In this document: piece by piece, positions 7,183-62,785 of the stretch
Layout: each line of letters starts with the position of its first letter
How positions within the stretch are numbered: position 1 is the first letter of the stretch
Assembly (NCBI RefSeq): GCF_030684315.1
Contig: NC_081387.1
Span: forward strand, 7,048,497-7,112,496
From: Stegostoma tigrinum
Lineage: Eukaryota
Direction of reading: 5' to 3'
DNA length: 64,000 nucleotides
The notes under the pieces: generated by a model
Told to the model about the DNA's origin: nothing
What the model saw: the letters and a program-made list of their open reading frames with translations, nothing else
The model's database searches: none
Position numbers and translations under genes: made by a program

Positions 7183-7624
7183 TTAGGGAGGCAGAGACAG
7201 GTTGGACTGGTTTTGGGATGCAGTGGGTGGGGGGGAAGAGCTGGGCTGGTTGTGTGGTGCAGTGGGGGGAGGGGATGAACTGGGCTGGTTTAGGGATGCA
7301 GTGGGGGAAGGGGAGATTTTGAAACTGGTGAAGTCCACATTGATACCATATGGCTGCAGGGTTCCCAGGCGGAATATGAGTTGCTGTTCCTGCAACCTTC
7401 GGGTGGCATCATTGTGGCAGTGCAGGAGGCCCATGATGGACATGTCATCAAGAGAATGGGAGGGGGAGTGGAAATGGTTTGCGACTGGGAGGTGCAGTTG
7501 TTTGTTGCGAACTGAGCGGAGGTGTTCTGCAAAGCGGTCCCCAAGCCTCCGCTTGGTTTCCCCAATGTAGAGAAAGCCGCACCGGGTACAGTGGATGCAG
7601 TATACCAAATTGGCAGATGTGCAG
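7183..7624 (-). pseudogene. 5'-truncated PLE GIY-YIG endonuclease C-terminus
   Basis: CTSANLVYCIHCTRCGFLYIGETKRRLGDRFAEH...VANHF...EQQLIFRLGTLQPYGIN: VY..CxxC..YIG motif with conserved R, E and N. Confidence 0.93.
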
Positions 7625-7958
7625 CCCAGCCCAGCCCAGTTCATCCCCTCCCCCCACTGCACCACACAACCAGCCCAGCTCTTCCCCCCCACCCACTGCA
7701 TCCCAAAACCAGTCCAACCTGTCTCTGCCTCCCTAACCGGTTCTTCCTCTCACCCATCCCTTCCTCCCACCCCAAGCCGCACCCCCAGCTACCTACTAAC
7801 CTCATCCCACCTCCTTGACCTGTCCGTCTTCCCTGGACTGACCTATCCCCTCCCTACCTCCCCACCCACACCTTCTCCACCTATCTTCTTTACTCTCCAT
7901 CTTCGGTCCGCCTCCCCCTCTCTCCCTATTTATTCCAGTTCCCTCCCCCCATCCCCCT

Positions 7959-19976: not shown

Positions 19977-22111
19977 CTACAAAAGAACTAAAAGTGAATC
20001 AAAATAAAAACATTATACTACTGAAATGTGGTAACTGTAAGAAAGCTGGCTTGCTTACTTCCAGTTATCTCAGAAACAGATGCAAGATTCACTCTACTCT
20101 CAGTCCGTGTTATTCAAACTTTTTTTTCATTTTCATACTACGCCACAGAATAAGAGCTTATTGCTGGTTTTAGTTTTAGGCTTTGCTCTGAGTGACAGAG
20201 ATAAAAATATTAAGAGCTTTTCCTGGCAAGTTGCTACAACTACTGTTCACATCCAGGTCTGTGAACAAACACAGCGTCTCGGTCCAAATGCTGTTATTGC
20301 CGAGCAACAGATCTGAACTTCGGCTTTTTGCAAGTCGCGTTGTCCAAAAATTAAGGGCCACAAAAGTCCAATTCTTGTCTCTTAACCACTCTTAGTGGCC
20401 TTCTCTTCCAAAATATACTTGCTTATCCGAATAATCCACAGGCAGTCAAGGTGGTTAAAGCTGTGCACAGGATATATGTCTTTGACTAATAAAGTATCAA
20501 ATACAAGAGCAAAGAAATTATAATGGTGCTGATATAATGTTGTTTAGACCATGGCTACAGTATGCATTTCTCTTGACCGTATTATAGAAAGGGCGCAACT
20601 GCAAATCGAAAAAAAGTGCAGAAGAGACTCAGCTGGATGGTGCCTGGCTGGAGGGATTCTGCTATGAAGAGAGGAGTAGATAAGCAAGACAACCCCAGCC
20701 TAGAGCCGAGAAGACTGGGGGTGAGGGGGGGGGGGGGGGTGGCGGCGGTAGGATCTGATTAAGGGGTAGAAAATTCGGACTATCACTGACAGAGCAGATA
20801 AAGTGCAAGTTTTCACCAAGTGAAGGTGTCAATAAATGTGGAGCATAGATATGCAGCAGGAGGTTTAAGGGAGGATTTAAAAAGGAAATATTTTTTCACC
20901 ATCTTCAACAAGAGAGAATCTAACAATCGTCGCTGGACATTCAATGGTGCCACCACCACCGAATCCCCAACTATCAACATTCTGGGGAGTTAGCATTGAC
21001 TGGAAACTGAACTGGACTAGTTATACAAACACAGTGTCTCCAAGTGTGTATCAGAAGCTCGAAATACTGCAGTGAGTAACTCAGCCCCTGACTCCCCAAA
21101 GCCTGTCTACCCTTGATAAATGCCACATCAGGAGAGACTTCTTCCTATTTGCCTGGACGTGTGCATGTCCAGAAGTACTCAAGAAGCCTGACAGCAAAGG
21201 GCAATCCAGTACCACATCAACCACTGACACACAGTAGCAGCAGTGTTCACCACTGACAAACTGCACTGCAAAATTCACCAAATGCATGATCACTTCCATC
21301 TAGGAGGACTAGAGCAGCTGATACACTTGTAAGTGCCCTCTAAGCCAGTTGTCATTCTGGCTTGGAAATATGTCACCGCTCATTCAAATTTGCTGGAACC
21401 AAATCTTGGAATTTTCTCCCTCATGGCATTGTGTGTTTACCCAGACTAAAGTGTTTCAAGAAGCAACAAAAGATATGCGATAAGTGCTGGCCCAACCGGT
21501 GAAGTTCATATTAGGTGAATTAAGTTTTTTAAGAAAAGAATATGATGGAAATCTGGGATTCACTGTCAAAAAGGGTGGAAGATACAGGAACCAACAAGAC
21601 ACTTAAGAACTGTTTAATGCAACAAACCAAGTCCTGGAAAACAGGATTAGAACAGATGTTTGTTTGGTGAATGGCACAGGCAAAGTGGGCCAAAGGGACT
21701 CTTTCCACATTGTAGAAACTCTCAACATGAAGTAAGCAAAACGGGTCTCTCTGGAGTGAAACAAATATTCTGAGGAACCAATATTTCTTTTTCTCACTGA
21801 AAAGGCTGGAGGCAGGTCATGATTTGGCTTATATACGTAGAACGCACAAAAGCACGATTTTTGGTACCATACAAAACAGGGTTATCCCATATGCCACAAT
21901 ACAAGGTGCTCACAACAGTGTCAAATAAGGTACATATAATTTCAAACCGCGGATCTGACCCACCACATTTACTTTTTCAAGACCCATTCAAATACTGATC
22001 AGAGTGCAGAAAACATACAATGACCGGACAGTAAGATTGAAAATTCTATTGGACATAAATCCACACCCACTCTATCACCTGACCTCAACATTCATTAATT
22101 TTTTACCTCAC

Positions 22112-22223
22112 CTCAACCTTTTCCATCTGATTACTGCGATTATTCCGATAATCACAAGTGCAGCAACGGCCAACAATGTTATAATTCTTGCAGTGGAGCC
22201 CCGGCCTCCGTCCTCCACTGTTT
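22112..22223 (-). pseudogene. MHC class I connecting peptide/transmembrane exon
   Basis: ETVEDGGRGSTARIITLLAVAALVIIGIIAVIRWKRL: hydrophobic helix plus basic stop-transfer. Acceptor tttttcag. Donor either AG|GTGAGG (22112) or G|GTAAAA (22107, which includes a TGA). Confidence 0.9.
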
Positions 22224-22341
22224 CTGAAAAACATTTGAATAGTAATGGATGTCACGATGTTCCTGAATTCATATGCAAATTCTGTCTTGAAGGATTATTC
22301 TAACCAAACCGGCCTGTCCAGAAAGTGATGCGCATACATAC

Positions 22342-22620
22342 CCCACTGATAGAACTTGGGCTCTGACAGGCTGCTGTGTTCAATTTGACAGGAGTATTGA
22401 TCCTCATCCCCAGCATTGATTTCAATATCTTTCTGGATCTGATGGGTCCCATCATGGTTCGGCCGAACCCCTGAGGATTGTCTCTCAGGCCAGACCTCTC
22501 CATTCCTTAGCCAGGTCACCACGATTTCTACCGGGTAAAATCCAGTGACCAGGCAGGAGAGTGTGAGTGGCTTGTCCTGACGACTGGGGTCGCTCCTGGA
22601 GCTGAACACTTCAGGCTGAA
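22342..22620 (-). pseudogene. MHC class I alpha3 (Ig C1-set) exon, open
   Basis: VQPEV...LTLSCLVTGFYPVEIVVTWLRNG...PNHDGTHQI...YSCQIEHSSL...QW. Both Ig cysteines present; acceptor ttccatcacag, donor G|GTATGT; 279 nt. Confidence 0.97.
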
Positions 22621-22721
22621 CTGTGATGGAAAATGGTGAAAACACAAAGCATGTATGAAAGGTAACAAACGGAACAAGGAGTAGTTTCAAAGATCAGTAT
22701 GTTGTCAAAATGGAAACATAC

Positions 22722-22997
22722 CTTTCCTTTCGAAATATTCTTTTCCAACCTCCAAATCCAACAGCAATTGCTCCAGAAATATTTGTTCCAGATGTGTTTT
22801 CCAATACTTGGTCCAGGATGCATCAGAATTCCATTTCTCAGTTGTCATTACTGCATGGTGGTTGGTTGCAATCCATCTCATTCTCTCTGCCTCTAAACTA
22901 ATATAGTCTTTTCTGTCATACCCAAAACGCATTGATATCTTAACGGAGCCATCTTCAACTATTTCAGCACAACTTATCCATTAAAACAGGTGAATTC
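22722..22997 (-). pseudogene. MHC class I alpha2 exon with premature stop
   Basis: GIHLF*WISCAEIVEDGSVKISMRFGYDRKDYISLEAERMRWIATNHHAVMTTEKWNSDASWTKYWKTHLEQIFLEQLLLDLEVGKEYFERK. YDxxDYI, W133 and TxxKW motifs; 276 nt; donor G|GTATGT. Confidence 0.95.
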
Positions 22998-25900
22998 CTT
23001 TCAGTGATGAACAAAGGGATCAAAAGCCAACATTTAATGATACATCACATGCTGTCTGAACAGAGACAACAGGCATCTGATTTCAGGTAGAAATGGGGGC
23101 TTAGAGTCAGAGCCTAATCAGAAAAGGAAGAGGATTCAGTTGAAAATGTATACCAATTGTTGCGGCTGTGAATTCAGTCTGAACTTTCTAAATCATTTGA
23201 ACCTGATGAGTGGTCAGAAGTCAAACAAAATGGTTTTTGGGAAATTAAGCATCCAACCAGGATTCAGTGGTCTTAGAAAGGGCTAGTAAACTAATGACAA
23301 GACTTGATTCCCATACATTAATAGCAAACAACAAATTAATTCCCCAGAAACTAATAACTTGAATTAATAGACAACATATTAATCCCAGGATGCTCATGTG
23401 TGTTGGTTTCAGCAAATTTACAACAGTTAACTGCCAGTCAGTGGTTAAGTCCCAGATGTTAAAAATAAAGCATTAATTTATAACTTGCTCATAATAGAAG
23501 ATAAATTTCCAGCTACCAACAGGAATTAATTCCTACCACATTGACAACACAAGTCCCCAACATACAAACAACAGAAGTTTACTGCCAGCACATTATGGGT
23601 GGTTTTAATTTACAAGATGCTAACTCAAACATGTGAAAGTTAGAAGTTATTCCCAACTGCTAAAGAATATATTTAATTTAAAGTCACTACGAGCAATGTG
23701 ATGAAATGTCTCGTTATTTCCAGCTTTTTCTTTGCACCAAGCAAGCCAGCAAACTACGTCAATTTCTACTGATAGACATTTCCAAGTGATGCTAGGTGCC
23801 AACAAAAGGGAAGGGCTCACCATAAGACTGAAACAGATTACTCAGCACAAAGAATTGCAGTTTAAAATTTTCAGTAGCTGACTGTAAGGTCAGTGTGAAG
23901 GTGACAGAGAGTGGATGGCATATTAGGAGTCCTGATTTTTAGCTGCCCTACAGCAAAGGCAACTGAACTACAGGATTTCCCTGTAGTTGACACATGGAGT
24001 TAAGTTCCAAGAGTAGATGGGTGTCTGTGTTGTTGGAACCACAGCCAAGTTCTCAAAGACGTTAGGCAACTAAGGTGTCGCCATCAGGGCTCAGGAAAAG
24101 TGATGGTGGTTCACAAGTAACCAGCTGTGACCAATAGGTCAGTATGGCTGAGTGTGGTCATTGAAAGATCGCCAAGAGTAGCTGCTTGATGCAACTCAGC
24201 AAGATGGGAGAGCTCAAGAAAAATGCAAAAGAAAGATTCAGCTTGGTAAAGCCGGCCTGAATTGTGGCAGTGAATCAGTACTGGAGTGCTGTTTGCAGAG
24301 TCTGGGGCAGCACAGACCCAGGCAGGAGGATGACCAGCTCTAACAAGAGCAGTCATTGAGCCAGTCCATGACAGACCACAAGGCATAGGATCAGAAATAG
24401 TCAATTGGCCCTAACGACTGCTTTGCCATTTGATCACTGCTGCCAATAAGTGACTTAAGAGTGGATTTGAAGACCAGACTAGACCAGCAAAAACAAAGAA
24501 CTGTAAACGCTTGTGAAGTTCAGTGAGATTTATTGACTGACCGCTTGTAAACTTAACCGCTGGAGGATTTGCTGAGAAAGCTGTAGGGTCTGCCTTGATC
24601 GCATTTGACACATAATTAAAATCATTTGAAAAGCTGGCAATGAGCTGCCTTTTTGATCCCTGCAGTCCAGGTGCTGTAGGTACACCCTCAGTGCCAGAGA
24701 AATTCCAGGATTTTTGACTCAACAACAGAAAATGATATGCTGATTTTTTTCCAAGTCAGGACGGTGGCTGGCTTGTAGGAGAACTTCCAAGGTGGCAGTG
24801 TTCCGCTGATTATCTCTTGCCCTTGTCCTTCAAGATTGAAGTGATTACAGATTTCAAAGGTGATATCTGAAGATCTTGGAATGCTTGTTCAGAGAACAGC
24901 AGATGGCAGGACTGATTAATACAGCAGTTAAAAAGGCACATGTGATCCTTGCCTTGATTAGTCATGGAACAGATCGGAAGAACAAGGAGGTCATGTTGGA
25001 ACAGCACTGAACTTTGGTGAGGCCACACCTGGAACACTATGCATTCTTTTGATCACCATCTTCCATGTCATGGAGCTTCCATGTATCTGCTGTCCTTGAC
25101 CTTCTAGATGGTAAAGGATGGGGTATTGAAAGATGTTGTCTAAAGGATCTTTGGTGAATTTCTGCAGTGCATCTTTGCAGATTATACACACTGCTGCTAC
25201 TAAGCATCGGGGAAGAGGTAGTGTTTGTTTGCGGATACCATGCCAATAAAGTAGAATGCTTTGGCCTGGATAATTTCAACACTCTTGATTTTGGAGCTGC
25301 GCACACCCAGTAAAGTGGGGAGTATTCCATCACACTTCTCACTATGCCACATGGATGGGGCCAGGTTTTCTGGAGTCAGGATGAGAAGTACTCCACTGGC
25401 TTATGGGCCCCAGCCTTTTCACTCGAGGCTCCCCTATCTCACATCCAGCTTCCCTCTCTTACTGCTGAAGCCCAGTCAAAATTGCACGTTTAACTGCATA
25501 CCAATTCATTGGTATATGAAAACCACATGTGATAACATCAGTGCTTGGAACGCTGCGTTCCTGAATGAGGACACACGTAGTTTGTCTGCAATACCTACTT
25601 TTTGACATGTGCATGGGTTGCCAGATCACAGCCTATTACTCAAAGTTAGCACGTTACTTCTGTGTATTCGAAGTAAGTTTTACATGCATTGTCAATTGAA
25701 ATACTGATGCAACTTGTATGGCACTATAAAGGAAGAGTCGCTACAGTCCAGAGGACCATAGGGCACAGAAACACAAATGGTAGTGAGCTTAACGCATCTC
25801 AGTCAAGGGACAAATTTGAGAAACTGGGACCTATATAGTAACCTAAGCCAGTGTGGAACATGAACTCTTGGCATCACAAATCCAGCATCCAGACAACTGA

Positions 25901-41116: not shown

Positions 41117-42476
41117 GAAAAAAAAAACCATAGACCTGTGGATGCTGTAAATCAGGAACAAAAACAAAGTTGCTGGTTAAGCTCAGCAGGTCTGGCAGCA
41201 TCTGTGAAGGAGCAAACAGAGTTAACGTTTTGGGCCCAGTGACACTTCCTCAGAACTGATGGTGGCTGGGAAGATGTCAGTTTATATGCAGAAAATAAGA
41301 ATGCGGATGGGGTAGGGAGTAACCGATAGGATACAGCCCAAAGAGAGAGAAAGACGGTTGGACAGACAAAAGGACCTGCTAACGATCAGGCTGGGAGGGT
41401 GAGTAGTTGTTAATGGGGACAGTTAGTGACTAACAACAGGGGGATGTGTAATGGCAGGGTATGTGGTAACAAGGCCTGGTGTGTGGGGTTGGGGCACTGG
41501 GACATGGGGGAGTTTAGGCCCTGAAATTATTGAACTCAATATTGAGTCCGGAGGGCTGTAGGGTCCGCAAGCGGAAAATGAGGTGTTTTCCGCCCACCTT
41601 GCATTGGTCTTCGCTGGAATGTTGCAGGAAGCCAGAGACAGAAATATTGTGCAGGGGCAGGGTGGTGCTTTAAAAAGTGGCAGGCAACGCGTAGTTCAGG
41701 GTCTTTTTTGCAAGCAAAATGTAGATGTTCTGCAAGACAGTCACCAAGTCTATGCTTTGTTTCCCCAGTGTAGAGGAGACCACACTGTGAGCAGCAAATG
41801 CAGTAGCGCAGATTCTGGGAAGTGCAGCTGAAGTGTTGCTTCACCTGGAAGGTATGTTTCGGCCCCTGGATACTGGTGAAGGAAGAGTTAAATGGGCAGG
41901 TGTTGTACCTTCGCCAGTTACAGGGGAAGGTGACATAGGGCTGTGGAGGGGTCAAGAAAGTGTGGACCAGGGTGTCCAGGAGGGAGTGGTCTTTGGGGAA
42001 GGTGGACAAGGGAGGGGAGGAGAATATGTGCCTGGTGGTGGCATTTCACTGGAGATGGCAGAAATGTTGTCTGATGATATTCTGGATGTGGATGCTGTTA
42101 TGTGAGGATATGGAAAATCCTATTGCTGTTGTGGGTGGGAAGCGAAGGGGTGAAGGCGGAAGTGTGGGAAATGGGTCAGACCTGGTTGAGACCCCTGTCG
42201 ACAATGGATTTTGGGACTCCTCAATTCAGGATTGTCAAAGTTGGCCTGATCTGAACATATGCGACCGAGAAAATGGGAAGGAGCCTTTACAGGAAGTGGG
42301 GTGTGAGGATGTATCGTCTAGATAGCTGTGTGAGTCAGTTGGTTTGTAGTGGATATTAGTGGCCAGTCTATCCCCAGAAATGGAAACAGAAATGTCAAGG
42401 AAGGGAAGGGAGGAGTCAGTGATAGACCAAGTAAAAGTGAGGGCAGGTTGGAAATTGAAGGCAAACTGATGAAGTT
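41117..42476 (-). mobile_element. PLE family F2, RT end plus GIY-YIG plus 3' UTR, inserted in CR1
   Basis: LPFLDI..YKPTDSHSYL and CTSQNLRYCICCSQCGLLYTGETKHRLG; hammerhead remnant at 41219-41258. Confidence 0.9.
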
Positions 42477-44534: not shown

Positions 44535-45740
44535 AATTACTGGGGAAGGAATATGTAAAGGGATTGCATGTTCACAGTAAAGAGGAGGCAGCTGGAGTCT
44601 ACAAACTGGAAGTTTTGAAACTTGCATAACGTGTCAGGTGAAGCTCAGAAGTATGTGGGCAAGGATTAGACCAGGACAGAGAGCTTTGAGTCAAGTTAGG
44701 AAGAAAAGAATTATATAGGGCAGAGCAGGCTGAAACGTTGGATTTGCCCGGACAGTCCTCTTTGTGGATTTTAGGGCAGGGGTAAAACAGAGCTGTGTGA
44801 GTTTGGGGACCATCAGCTTGGAAGCAGTGGAGGGAGGTCACCAGACGAAATGAGATCAGGTACTCTGGCAGATACAATGGTCTGATGTGTCATGGTGAGG
44901 TCATTGTGCAGGGGAACCCACCCGCTTACAACCCCACAGCACCTTCTCCTGCAACTGGAGAAGCTGCATTACCTGCCCATTTAACTCCTCCTTCTCCACT
45001 ATCCAAGGGCCCAAACATAACTTCCAGGTGAATCAACACTTGACCTGTACTTCCCAGAATCTAGTCTACTGCATTCGCTGCTCACAAATGTTGTCTCCTG
45101 TACATTGCGAAAACAAAATATAGACTGAGTGATTGCTTTGCAGAACATCTATGTTCTGCTCTCAAAAAAGAAGCTGAGCTACCTGTTGTCTGCCACTTTA
45201 AGACACCACCCTGTTCCCCGGCCAAAATTTTTGTCGCTGATTTTTGCAGTGTTCCAGCGAAGTCTAACGCAAGCTGGAAGAACAACACCTCATTTTCCAC
45301 TTGGGGACCCTGCAGCCCTTCGAACAATATTGAGTCTAACAATGAAAACGCTTCCATGTCCAAGCCCCCTAACCCACACTCATCAGGCCTCGTTATCACA
45401 TAGCCTGTAATTACACACTACCTATTGTTATTCACTAACAGTCCCCATTAAAAACTACTTACGTTCTTAGCCAGATCATTATCACTCTTTTGTCTATCCA
45501 ACTCCTCCTGTCTCTTTGGGCTCTATCCTATCATTTACTGCTTACACCATCCTCCTCTGTTTTTTTTCTGTGTATAAGTCAATGTTTTCCCAGATAATAT
45601 CAGTTCTGAGAAAGCGTCATCGGTCCTGAAATGTTAACTCTGATTTTCTCTTCACAGATGCCGCCAGATATGCTGAGCTTTTCCAGCAACTTCTATTTTT
45701 GTTCCTGATTTACAACATCTGCCATTCTTTTGGTTTTTAT
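44535..45740. mobile_element. PLE F2 with inverted RT piece (minus) and GIY-YIG/3' UTR (plus)
   Basis: PKIHK RT motif on minus; CTSQNLVYCIRCSQCCLLYIAKTKYRL on plus; 3' UTR complementary to 41117-41540. Confidence 0.85.
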
Positions 45741-61140: not shown

Positions 61141-62785
61141 TTTTCATTTTTATTTGAAAAAAAAACTTTATTCATAGAATGTACAAAAAACCCCAAAACA
61201 TTTATACACCTACCCAGTCACGCAAGCTGCTCCGGGTTACCCGGGGGTACGGACACCAACTAAAGGCAAAAACAAAACAAAAAAGAAATAAAAACAAAGC
61301 AAAGAAAAGAAAAAACCCCAGCAGTCGTCTCCCCGCACAGTCCCGGTTGGCCCCCTGACCAGTTGGGGAAGGCGCCAGCGGAGCCCAGTTACCAGATAGG
61401 GGCCTTGTTTCTGTTCTGGACGAGGGGTTTCATACGGTGGTCTTTCCCCACCACGCCTTGGCGGCAGCTGCCCCAAGCTTTAGCGCGTCCTTCAGCACGT
61501 AGTCCTGGAACTTGGAGTGCACCAGTCCACAAAACACGCGGGGTCAGTTCTTTCAGCTGGCAAACCAGCAAGATGCGGGCAGACCAAAGAGCGTCTTTCA
61601 CCGCATTGATGGTCCTCCAGGCGCAGTTGATGTTGGTCTCGGTGTGCGTCCGGGGAAACAGCCTGTAGAGCATGGAGTCCCATGTCACGGAGCTGTGGGG
61701 GGCGTGGGGGGGGAGAAGAGCGGAACCTGCAGGGGCGCTCTGCTGGCCTCGGGTCCATCCTGCAGGGCTGGTCCCTCCTGCACGACCTAGCCCTCCTGCA
61801 CATTAGGGGAGGTCCTTGCAGGGCCCTGGTACCTTCCTCTCCTCCGGCAGGGCTTGCCCCGCTTTGCCCCTGCCGGCGACCCGGGCATAGGTGGTTCCCC
61901 CGCTGCAGGCATGTCCTATAGAGGTGGCCTGCTCCCCAAAGGTTGCAGCTTTTTTCTTTTGGGCACTCCTTTGCAAGGTGTCCCCCCTCCCTGCAGTTCC
62001 TACAGATGGTGGCTTTGCAGTCAGCTGCTACGTGACCTGACCTACCACAGGCATGGCAGATTTTAGGTTGCCCTGCGTAGGTCGGGTAGCCCTTGCTCCC
62101 GCCGATCGCAAAGCTGGATGGTGAGAGTGTACGATGTTCCCGTCCGAGCCCGTCCTCAGCATCACCCTGTCCTGCCTCTTACTGGTCCAGATGCTTAAAG
62201 GGGTCCATGATGTTGGTTAGGTCCCCTTCCACCTTCACGTACCTTCCAAGGAAGGTCAGGACATCAACTGCTGGCACATGCGGATTGTACATGTGTACAG
62301 TCACCATACGGCTCCTCTGCACTGGCATCATGAACAGCGGGACAGCGGTCAATACAGAGAGGGGGCCCTCACCTCCTTTCTCCTTGAAAACCTCCTGGAA
62401 GGGCTCGCAAAGCTTGGCACTCCTGAAGGTTACATCGTAAAAACCTCCTCCAGGGAAATCCTGCAGGCAGTAAATGTCCGCAGCATAAACCCACAATAGT
62501 CCAACAGGACCCTCTTCACGAAGAAGGTGCGGTCCACAGATGCACCTTCATCCACCTTCTTCACGGAAACGCGGATGGTGTTCCAGACCCCCTGACCCGG
62601 GGCACGAGCACTCCCCGCAGACATCGTTGTGGATTGGCTGCTCCCCTGAACCAGCGTTAGGCCGAAGCCAGCATTAAGATCCACCGGTTGAAAGGGTGTA
62701 CAGCCAACCCGCCGTCTTCCTTCCACCTCCAACACAGTCGCGCTCTCCTCTTCTCGGTCCACAAAAGAGTGGGTCTTTATTTTGT
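61141..62785 (-). mobile_element. Internally deleted Tx1/L1-group retrotransposon: ZCCHC3-like ORF1 plus ORF2 C-terminus plus A-rich tail
   Basis: ORF1 from ATG ~62624: DIYCLQDFPGGGFYDVTFRS...YAGQPKI-CHACGRSGHVAADC-KATI-CRNCREGGHLAKEC-PKEKS-CNLW-GAGHLYRTC (frameshifted). Fused near 61700 to SVTWDSMLYRLFP..AWRTINAVKDALW. AATAAA and A-rich end at 61141-61172. Confidence 0.85.

Follow-up and report, generated by a model that had tools for sequence, protein, structure and literature searches.

The exon at positions 22722..22997 of the minus strand of the window, by which we mean the whole 64-kb stretch of DNA that was analysed, very probably belongs to a non-classical MHC class I pseudogene of sharks, in which it is the alpha2 exon; the lineage is likely UEA. 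The canonical Cys101-Cys164 bridge that the exon lacks is missing from the intact members of its family as well, a state that was likely inherited. The loss of the disulfide is real and lineage-wide, but it marks a shark lineage that has already been described, and the copy in the window is a pseudogene. Belonging to a defunct copy within a family already on record, the exon is itself of minor importance; the interest lies in the groove of the intact family, in which nature has put the purpose of the near-invariant alpha2 disulfide to the test.

Organization of the class I gene

The exons were located by tblastn with shark relatives and present the layout of a class I heavy chain, in which leader, alpha1, alpha2, alpha3 (Ig C1-set) and transmembrane exons follow one another in order, all on the minus strand and with phase-1 introns. 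The leader (signal peptide) exon (34149..34200, 52 bp) has an ATG start and a phase-1 GT donor, and tblastn aligns it at 80-88% identity with the opening 15-16 residues of its shark relatives. The alpha1 exon (31724..31984, 261 bp; tblastn E 8e-29 to P0002) carries Val at the place of Tyr7, Thr at that of Tyr59 and Gly at that of Arg84, and retains the Asn86 glycan site. The alpha2 exon, of 276 bp and bounded by an AG acceptor and a GT donor, is followed by an intron of 101 bp (22621..22721, GT..AG), and the same 101 bases are skipped by a contig of run X20 (CT..AC on the plus strand). The alpha3 exon (22342..22620, 279 bp) is an open frame with both Ig cysteines, a Pfam C1-set match at E 2.8e-16 and 84-87% identity to the best family members. 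The connecting peptide and transmembrane exon (22107..22223, 117 bp) was likewise found by tblastn, and a run X20 contig aligns over 22107-22224 and departs from the window DNA at both ends.

The alpha1-alpha2 intron (22998-31723) is ~8.7 kb long, as against ~100-120 bp for the alpha2-alpha3 and alpha3-transmembrane introns. In the 64-kb window tblastn found no convincing second class I gene and no convincing cytoplasmic-tail exons, and no flanking MHC gene was found there. A weak UGA-like leader match at 44844-44713 (E 0.004) was rejected, as the match would cross an exon border.

Cysteine codons of the alpha2 exon

The translation of the alpha2 exon matches Pfam MHC_I (E 1.4e-11, profile positions 93-177), and in a comparison with solved structures 472 sequences were matched at E up to 0.01. 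The top PDB matches, avian class I chains among them, align without gaps over the matched stretch and place Phe opposite the second cysteine, and the residue register of the window's alpha2 is therefore safe. In the alpha2 alignment of PMC10751288, as far as available, the family is one residue shorter than HLA-A2 near 109 and one residue longer near 151; since the deletion and the insertion cancel, columns 101 and 164 keep their HLA numbers.

On the minus strand, codon 100 is TGT (Cys, 22971-22969), codon 101 is GCT (Ala, 22968-22966) and codon 164 is TTT (Phe, 22779-22777), which confirms each of the three codons in the original prediction together with the absence of a C101-C164 pair. The same exon carries His159, Gln167 and Asp171, and it retains Thr143, Lys146 and Trp147.

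Loss of the disulfide among shark relatives

A search with the alpha1 and alpha2 domains of the best relative gave 90 proteins, of which 89 came from 13 named shark species, and 89 relatives were aligned to the window's alpha2, in rows that include isoforms and are not all independent genes. Column 101 is Cys in 0 of 84 rows, being occupied by Val (78), Ala (2), Ile (2) and Leu (2), while column 164 is Cys in 8 of 87, with Leu (29), Phe (23), Tyr (10) and others; column 100 has Ser (33), Thr (29) and Ile (13) and likewise no Cys in 84. In the control, which comprised 158 vertebrate alpha2 domains taken as other representatives from the library-wide profile search, both cysteines are present in 151 and no domain is without both. 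Two of the three control rows with Cys164 only (P0185 and P0197) are alignment slips, their sequences containing the first cysteine.

The loss at 164 is not uniform in the family, and Cys164 persists without Cys101 in 6 of the 77 intact tree members, on scattered branches. In the seven closest intact relatives, position 101 is Val (six) or Ala (one) and position 164 is Phe in all, so that these relatives, in which a retained C101 and C164 had been sought, have neither. The proposal that the disulfide loss is a lineage trait and not pseudogene drift is borne out by these counts, and from the family-wide figures and the subclade in which every row has Phe164 it follows that Phe164 and the absence of Cys101 were likely inherited. 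The supporting argument from the number of base changes away from a Cys codon is not supported, because Ala101 most likely arose from the family's Val, one change away, and not from Cys.

Phylogeny and lineage assignment

A quick maximum-likelihood tree was built from alpha1+alpha2 with columns 100, 101 and 164 removed; 13 family rows and one outgroup row with fewer than 160 aligned residues were left out, and 13 outgroup rows were kept. The window gene groups with 77 relatives in a single clade (SH-aLRT 100) that leaves out these outgroup rows, which are UAA-, UBA-, UDA- and UGA-like. Within the clade the window gene falls into a subclade of eight rows (support 90, not starred), all with Phe164, and its nearest database relative is a sawshark protein with 63% identity (support 92, not starred). 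The other rows of this subclade (P0013, P0009, P0012, P0010, P0011, P0015 and P0002) span sawshark, lamniform and carpet sharks and are conserved among them, their groove residues being almost the same, which sets them off from the other members of the expanded family; the subclade may represent one stable ortholog whose ligand is fixed.

The family is multicopy, with 10 clusters in the white shark, all on one 115.8 Mb contig, and among the 120 of 140 profile-search matches listed there is no ray or chimaera name. According to PMC10751288, the white shark has an MHC-Ib cluster on chromosome 19, and UEA is multicopy and MHC-linked, with UDA, brd2 and beta2m as its neighbours in the MHC class Ib cluster; a 2025 review (PMC12562908) lists two shark class Ib families as expanded, UBA and UEA. 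Since UBA keeps both cysteines and a UBA-like row stands in the outgroup of the tree, the window gene and its family are, by elimination, most likely of the UEA lineage. UEA is said to lack most of the classical peptide-anchor residues and to have a relatively hydrophobic groove, the most so among shark class I; it is reportedly present in sharks, absent from rays and chimaeras, and weakly expressed in tissues. The window's family resembles UEA in being multicopy in sharks and in wanting most peptide anchors, while the window copy differs in being a pseudogene with three stops and a private Cys100/Ala101.

Classical shark UAA (PDB 6lup; Triakis alleles, P0138 and its cluster) as well as UBA, UDA, UGA and UFA resemble the window gene in exon layout and class I fold. 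They share Gln96 and the Asn86 glycan site with its family, and Thr143, Lys146 and Trp147 are shared with UAA. All five lineages keep Cys101 and Cys164, unlike the window's family, and the UAA-like controls also differ from it in retaining Gly100, Tyr159, Trp167 and Tyr171; for UFA the comparison comes from the available alignment of PMC10751288 only, whereas the UAA-, UBA-, UDA- and UGA-like sequences fall outside the window's clade in the tree.

An origin in the lineage of dogfish UCA, a sequence that is not in the tree, or in an unnamed sister lineage, instead of UEA, is improbable. The window gene's alpha3 is by eye ~81% identical (~75/93 residues) to the nurse shark sequence 'UCA_NODE_26056' and ~42% identical (~39/93) to that of dogfish UCA, and in alpha2 the agreement with the nurse shark sequence is ~51/92, again by eye. 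Moreover, the window gene nests within a multicopy family of 13 shark species, which fits UEA, described as multicopy and expanded. In favour of UCA are the nearest database relative of the window gene, a sawshark protein, the sawshark presumably sitting on the dogfish side of the shark tree, and the published alignment. The supplement of Verissimo et al. 2023 (PMC10751288), which holds query sequences for class I lineages earlier reported in cartilaginous fish, labels the matching nurse shark sequence 'UCA', and the label 'UEA' is absent from the part available. In the alpha2 alignment of the same source, read by eye, both cysteines occur in 23 of 26 rows; dogfish UCA (AF515705) has Val101/Val164, nurse shark 'UCA_NODE_26056' has Val101/Leu164, and a 'UHA' row, which is poorly aligned, is also without both. 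Dogfish UCA is like the window's family in having Val101, in lacking Cys164, Gly100 and Trp167, and in a W97 and EV motif of the first alpha2 strand similar to the family's, yet it is far from the window gene in alpha3 and has a divergent alpha1 (PMC10751288, alignment as available).

UEA, described in 2021 by Almeida et al. (J Immunol 207:824), remains the preferred assignment. Any novelty implied for the disulfide loss lapses, as the same state is visible for dogfish UCA and the nurse shark in the available part of the published alignment (PMC10751288); the literature searched, which did not extend to the primary papers, nowhere puts into words that the cysteines are missing from UEA or UCA.

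Inactivation of the window copy

Three stop codons interrupt the gene, namely TAG at Trp60 in alpha1 (31814-31812), TAA at position 96 in the alpha2 exon (22983-22981) and a TGA (22110-22108) that takes the place of the Arg with which the transmembrane exon of close relatives ends. The residues at the first two are Trp60 in 77/77 and Gln96 in 76/77 members of the intact family. Of 46 well-conserved columns in alpha1/alpha2, the window gene deviates from what most of the family has at 8, including the two stops, against a median of 2 of 46 among the intact members (n=77), one of which reaches 11, and its terminal branch in the alpha1+alpha2 tree is 0.36 against a median of 0.14. The frame runs through the joined exons without a shift, and every splice site that was read is canonical. 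To call the gene barely decayed, as was done at first, is an understatement in view of the three nonsense codons and the changed columns, though frameshifts are indeed wanting. The window copy would yield no protein; it was likely inactivated later, with Ala101 and Cys100 as private drift.

A locus that is functional in the species, with stops due to errors of assembly or to a null allele, is very unlikely. Contigs of run X1, which may be the source sample, match 22604-23100 and 22050-22415 with 0 differences each, so that two of the three stops are not simple assembly slips, and three separate stops together with the drift at conserved columns point beyond a recent null allele. What speaks for function is the frame without shifts, the canonical splice sites and a run X20 contig, from another organism and presumably RNA, which has 12 differences over 277 bases of alpha2. 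It joins alpha1, alpha2 and alpha3 at the predicted borders, which suggests transcription of a close ortholog in that organism. Null alleles of non-classical class I genes have also been reported in trout (PMC6523485, text as available).

A spliced contig of run X20 (record 20) differs at 15 of 107 alpha3 bases (22514-22620) against 12 of 277 alpha2 bases (22722-22998). This is the reverse of the usual pattern and may reflect homogenisation of alpha3 among paralogs.

That Cys100 is a shifted or repurposed cysteine engaged in an alternative bridge or a heavy-chain dimer has only the slightest probability. Cys100 does adjoin the canonical position 101, and an extra Cys at 100 is seen in some cavefish S-lineage sequences in the available part of PMC4364491; however, none of the 84 relatives shares it, no other cysteine occurs in the alpha1+alpha2 translation of the window gene, and a stop lies four codons upstream. 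Neutral drift of both cysteines after pseudogene formation can be set aside as practically negligible in probability, for although the three stops, the long terminal branch and the excess of conserved-column changes would suit it, intact relatives are without Cys101 in 84/84 and the closest intact clade has Phe164, and drift accounts only for the Val-to-Ala change at 101 and the new Cys100.

Unpaired cysteines recur in the alpha1 domain of intact members, at position 45 in 29/77 and at position 71 in 11/77.

Groove residues of the intact members

The classical anchors of the peptide termini are Y7, Y59, R84, Y123, T143, K146, W147, Y159 and Y171. The window gene keeps four of these nine (Y123, T143, K146 and W147) and has V7, T59, G84, H159 and D171 elsewhere; with this set of anchors and no Cys101-Cys164 pair accompanied by Gly100, it does not qualify as classical class Ia (UAA). 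Among the intact members Gly100 and Cys101 occur in 0/76 and Trp167 and Tyr7 in 0/77, Tyr159 in 14/77, Tyr59 in 30/77, Arg84 in 15/77 and Tyr171 in 52/77, while Trp147 is present in 77/77, Lys146 in 69/77 and Thr143 in 58/77. In the control domains (n=155) Gly100 is found in 137 and Trp167 in 114. The intact members also keep Gln96, Gly120 and Asp122, which we take to be contacts of beta2-microglobulin.

In the account of Wu et al. 2021 (PMC8236899), Gly100 breaks the strand and lifts the Cys101-Cys164 pair, and it turns the helix in such a way that the groove is blocked by Trp167. MIC-A and MHC class II beta1 are without the Gly100 irregularity, and a residue other than glycine at 100, which the shark family has as well, goes in that source with a strand that is regular and an H2b helix that is differently placed. 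The cysteine pair is retained in class II beta1, whereas the shark family has lost the pair too, and the likeness is inferred from sequence only.

The disulfide appears to have been lost along with the rest of the N-terminal wall, since Gly100, Trp167, Tyr7 and mostly Tyr159 are gone as well. In the intact members Val101 would pack on Leu, Phe or Tyr at 164 in replacement of the covalent link, and the class I fold with its presumed beta2-microglobulin contacts (Gln96, Gly120, Asp122) would be preserved. The end of the groove that fixes the peptide N-terminus, stripped of Gly100, Trp167, Tyr7 and mostly Tyr159, would be rebuilt or open, while the Thr143/Lys146/Trp147 end would be preserved, and the ligand presented would differ from the usual terminally anchored 8-10-mer and probably be more hydrophobic. 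From these residues we infer a rebuilt or open N-terminal groove end and an unconventional ligand in the intact members. The differently shaped groove of the original prediction is thus a reasonable expectation for the intact members, but it cannot apply to the window copy, which makes no protein.

Groove hydropathy, calculated as the mean over 39 positions that we take to form the groove, is 0.63 for the window gene and 0.43 +/- 0.33 (range -0.23 to 1.2) for the family. The controls gave -0.03 and -0.13 for UAA-like, -0.25 to -0.55 for UDA-like, 0.45 for UBA-like and 0.51 and 0.78 for UGA-like sequences. The family is therefore above the UAA- and UDA-like sequences, and it overlaps the UBA- and UGA-like ones and is not above them.

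The predicted model of the intact member P0013 shows class I topology and places 101 within a strand and 164 on the long helix (pLDDT 91-93 around both), and it matches chicken BF2 (Foldseek E 3e-27) as well as MR1 and class I chains (VIA Z ~24). The model was folded without beta2-microglobulin, and when the whole ectodomain is compared its rmsd to the best VIA matches is ~5-6 A; it cannot show the shape or flexibility of the groove. As far as such a prediction goes, the alpha1/alpha2 platform fold is present in the intact family. Among solved PDB chains, a sequence search with P0013 found no member of the family, the best matches being bird class I.

In HLA-A2, mutation of the alpha2 disulfide abolishes TAPBPR binding (PMC6926029, in the part available), and dozens of intact shark genes manage without this bond. 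Shark class Ib lineages are described as being of unknown function in the available text of PMC10751288. A broader scenario, offered tentatively and on balance rather doubtful, is that a large class I family has been maintained in sharks from a time before the main orders diverged, and that in it the N-terminal wall (Gly100, Cys101, Cys164, Trp167, Tyr7 and mostly Tyr159) was dismantled as one module while the C-terminal anchors (Thr143, Lys146, Trp147) were conserved. The groove would then be open or hydrophobic at one end, its ligands, such as N-extended or N-lipidated peptides, would be held by the C-terminus, and folding would proceed without the disulfide on which TAPBPR binding depends in mammalian class I.

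Other elements in the window

A GIY-YIG-like stretch at 7183-7749 was matched at a Pfam E of 5e-4, which is below the Pfam cut-off. Similar text lies near 41536-42045 and 45065-45403, and Pfam gave no match on the copy at 41539-42045. These stretches are probably decayed elements of a type for which we assume the family name Penelope. On the minus strand, two adjacent frames at 61492-62547 encode zf-CCHC zinc knuckles (E 2e-9) and RNA-binding domains of the ZCCHC3 type (E 2e-10 and 8e-9); together they likely represent ORF1 of a non-LTR retrotransposon, split by a stop.
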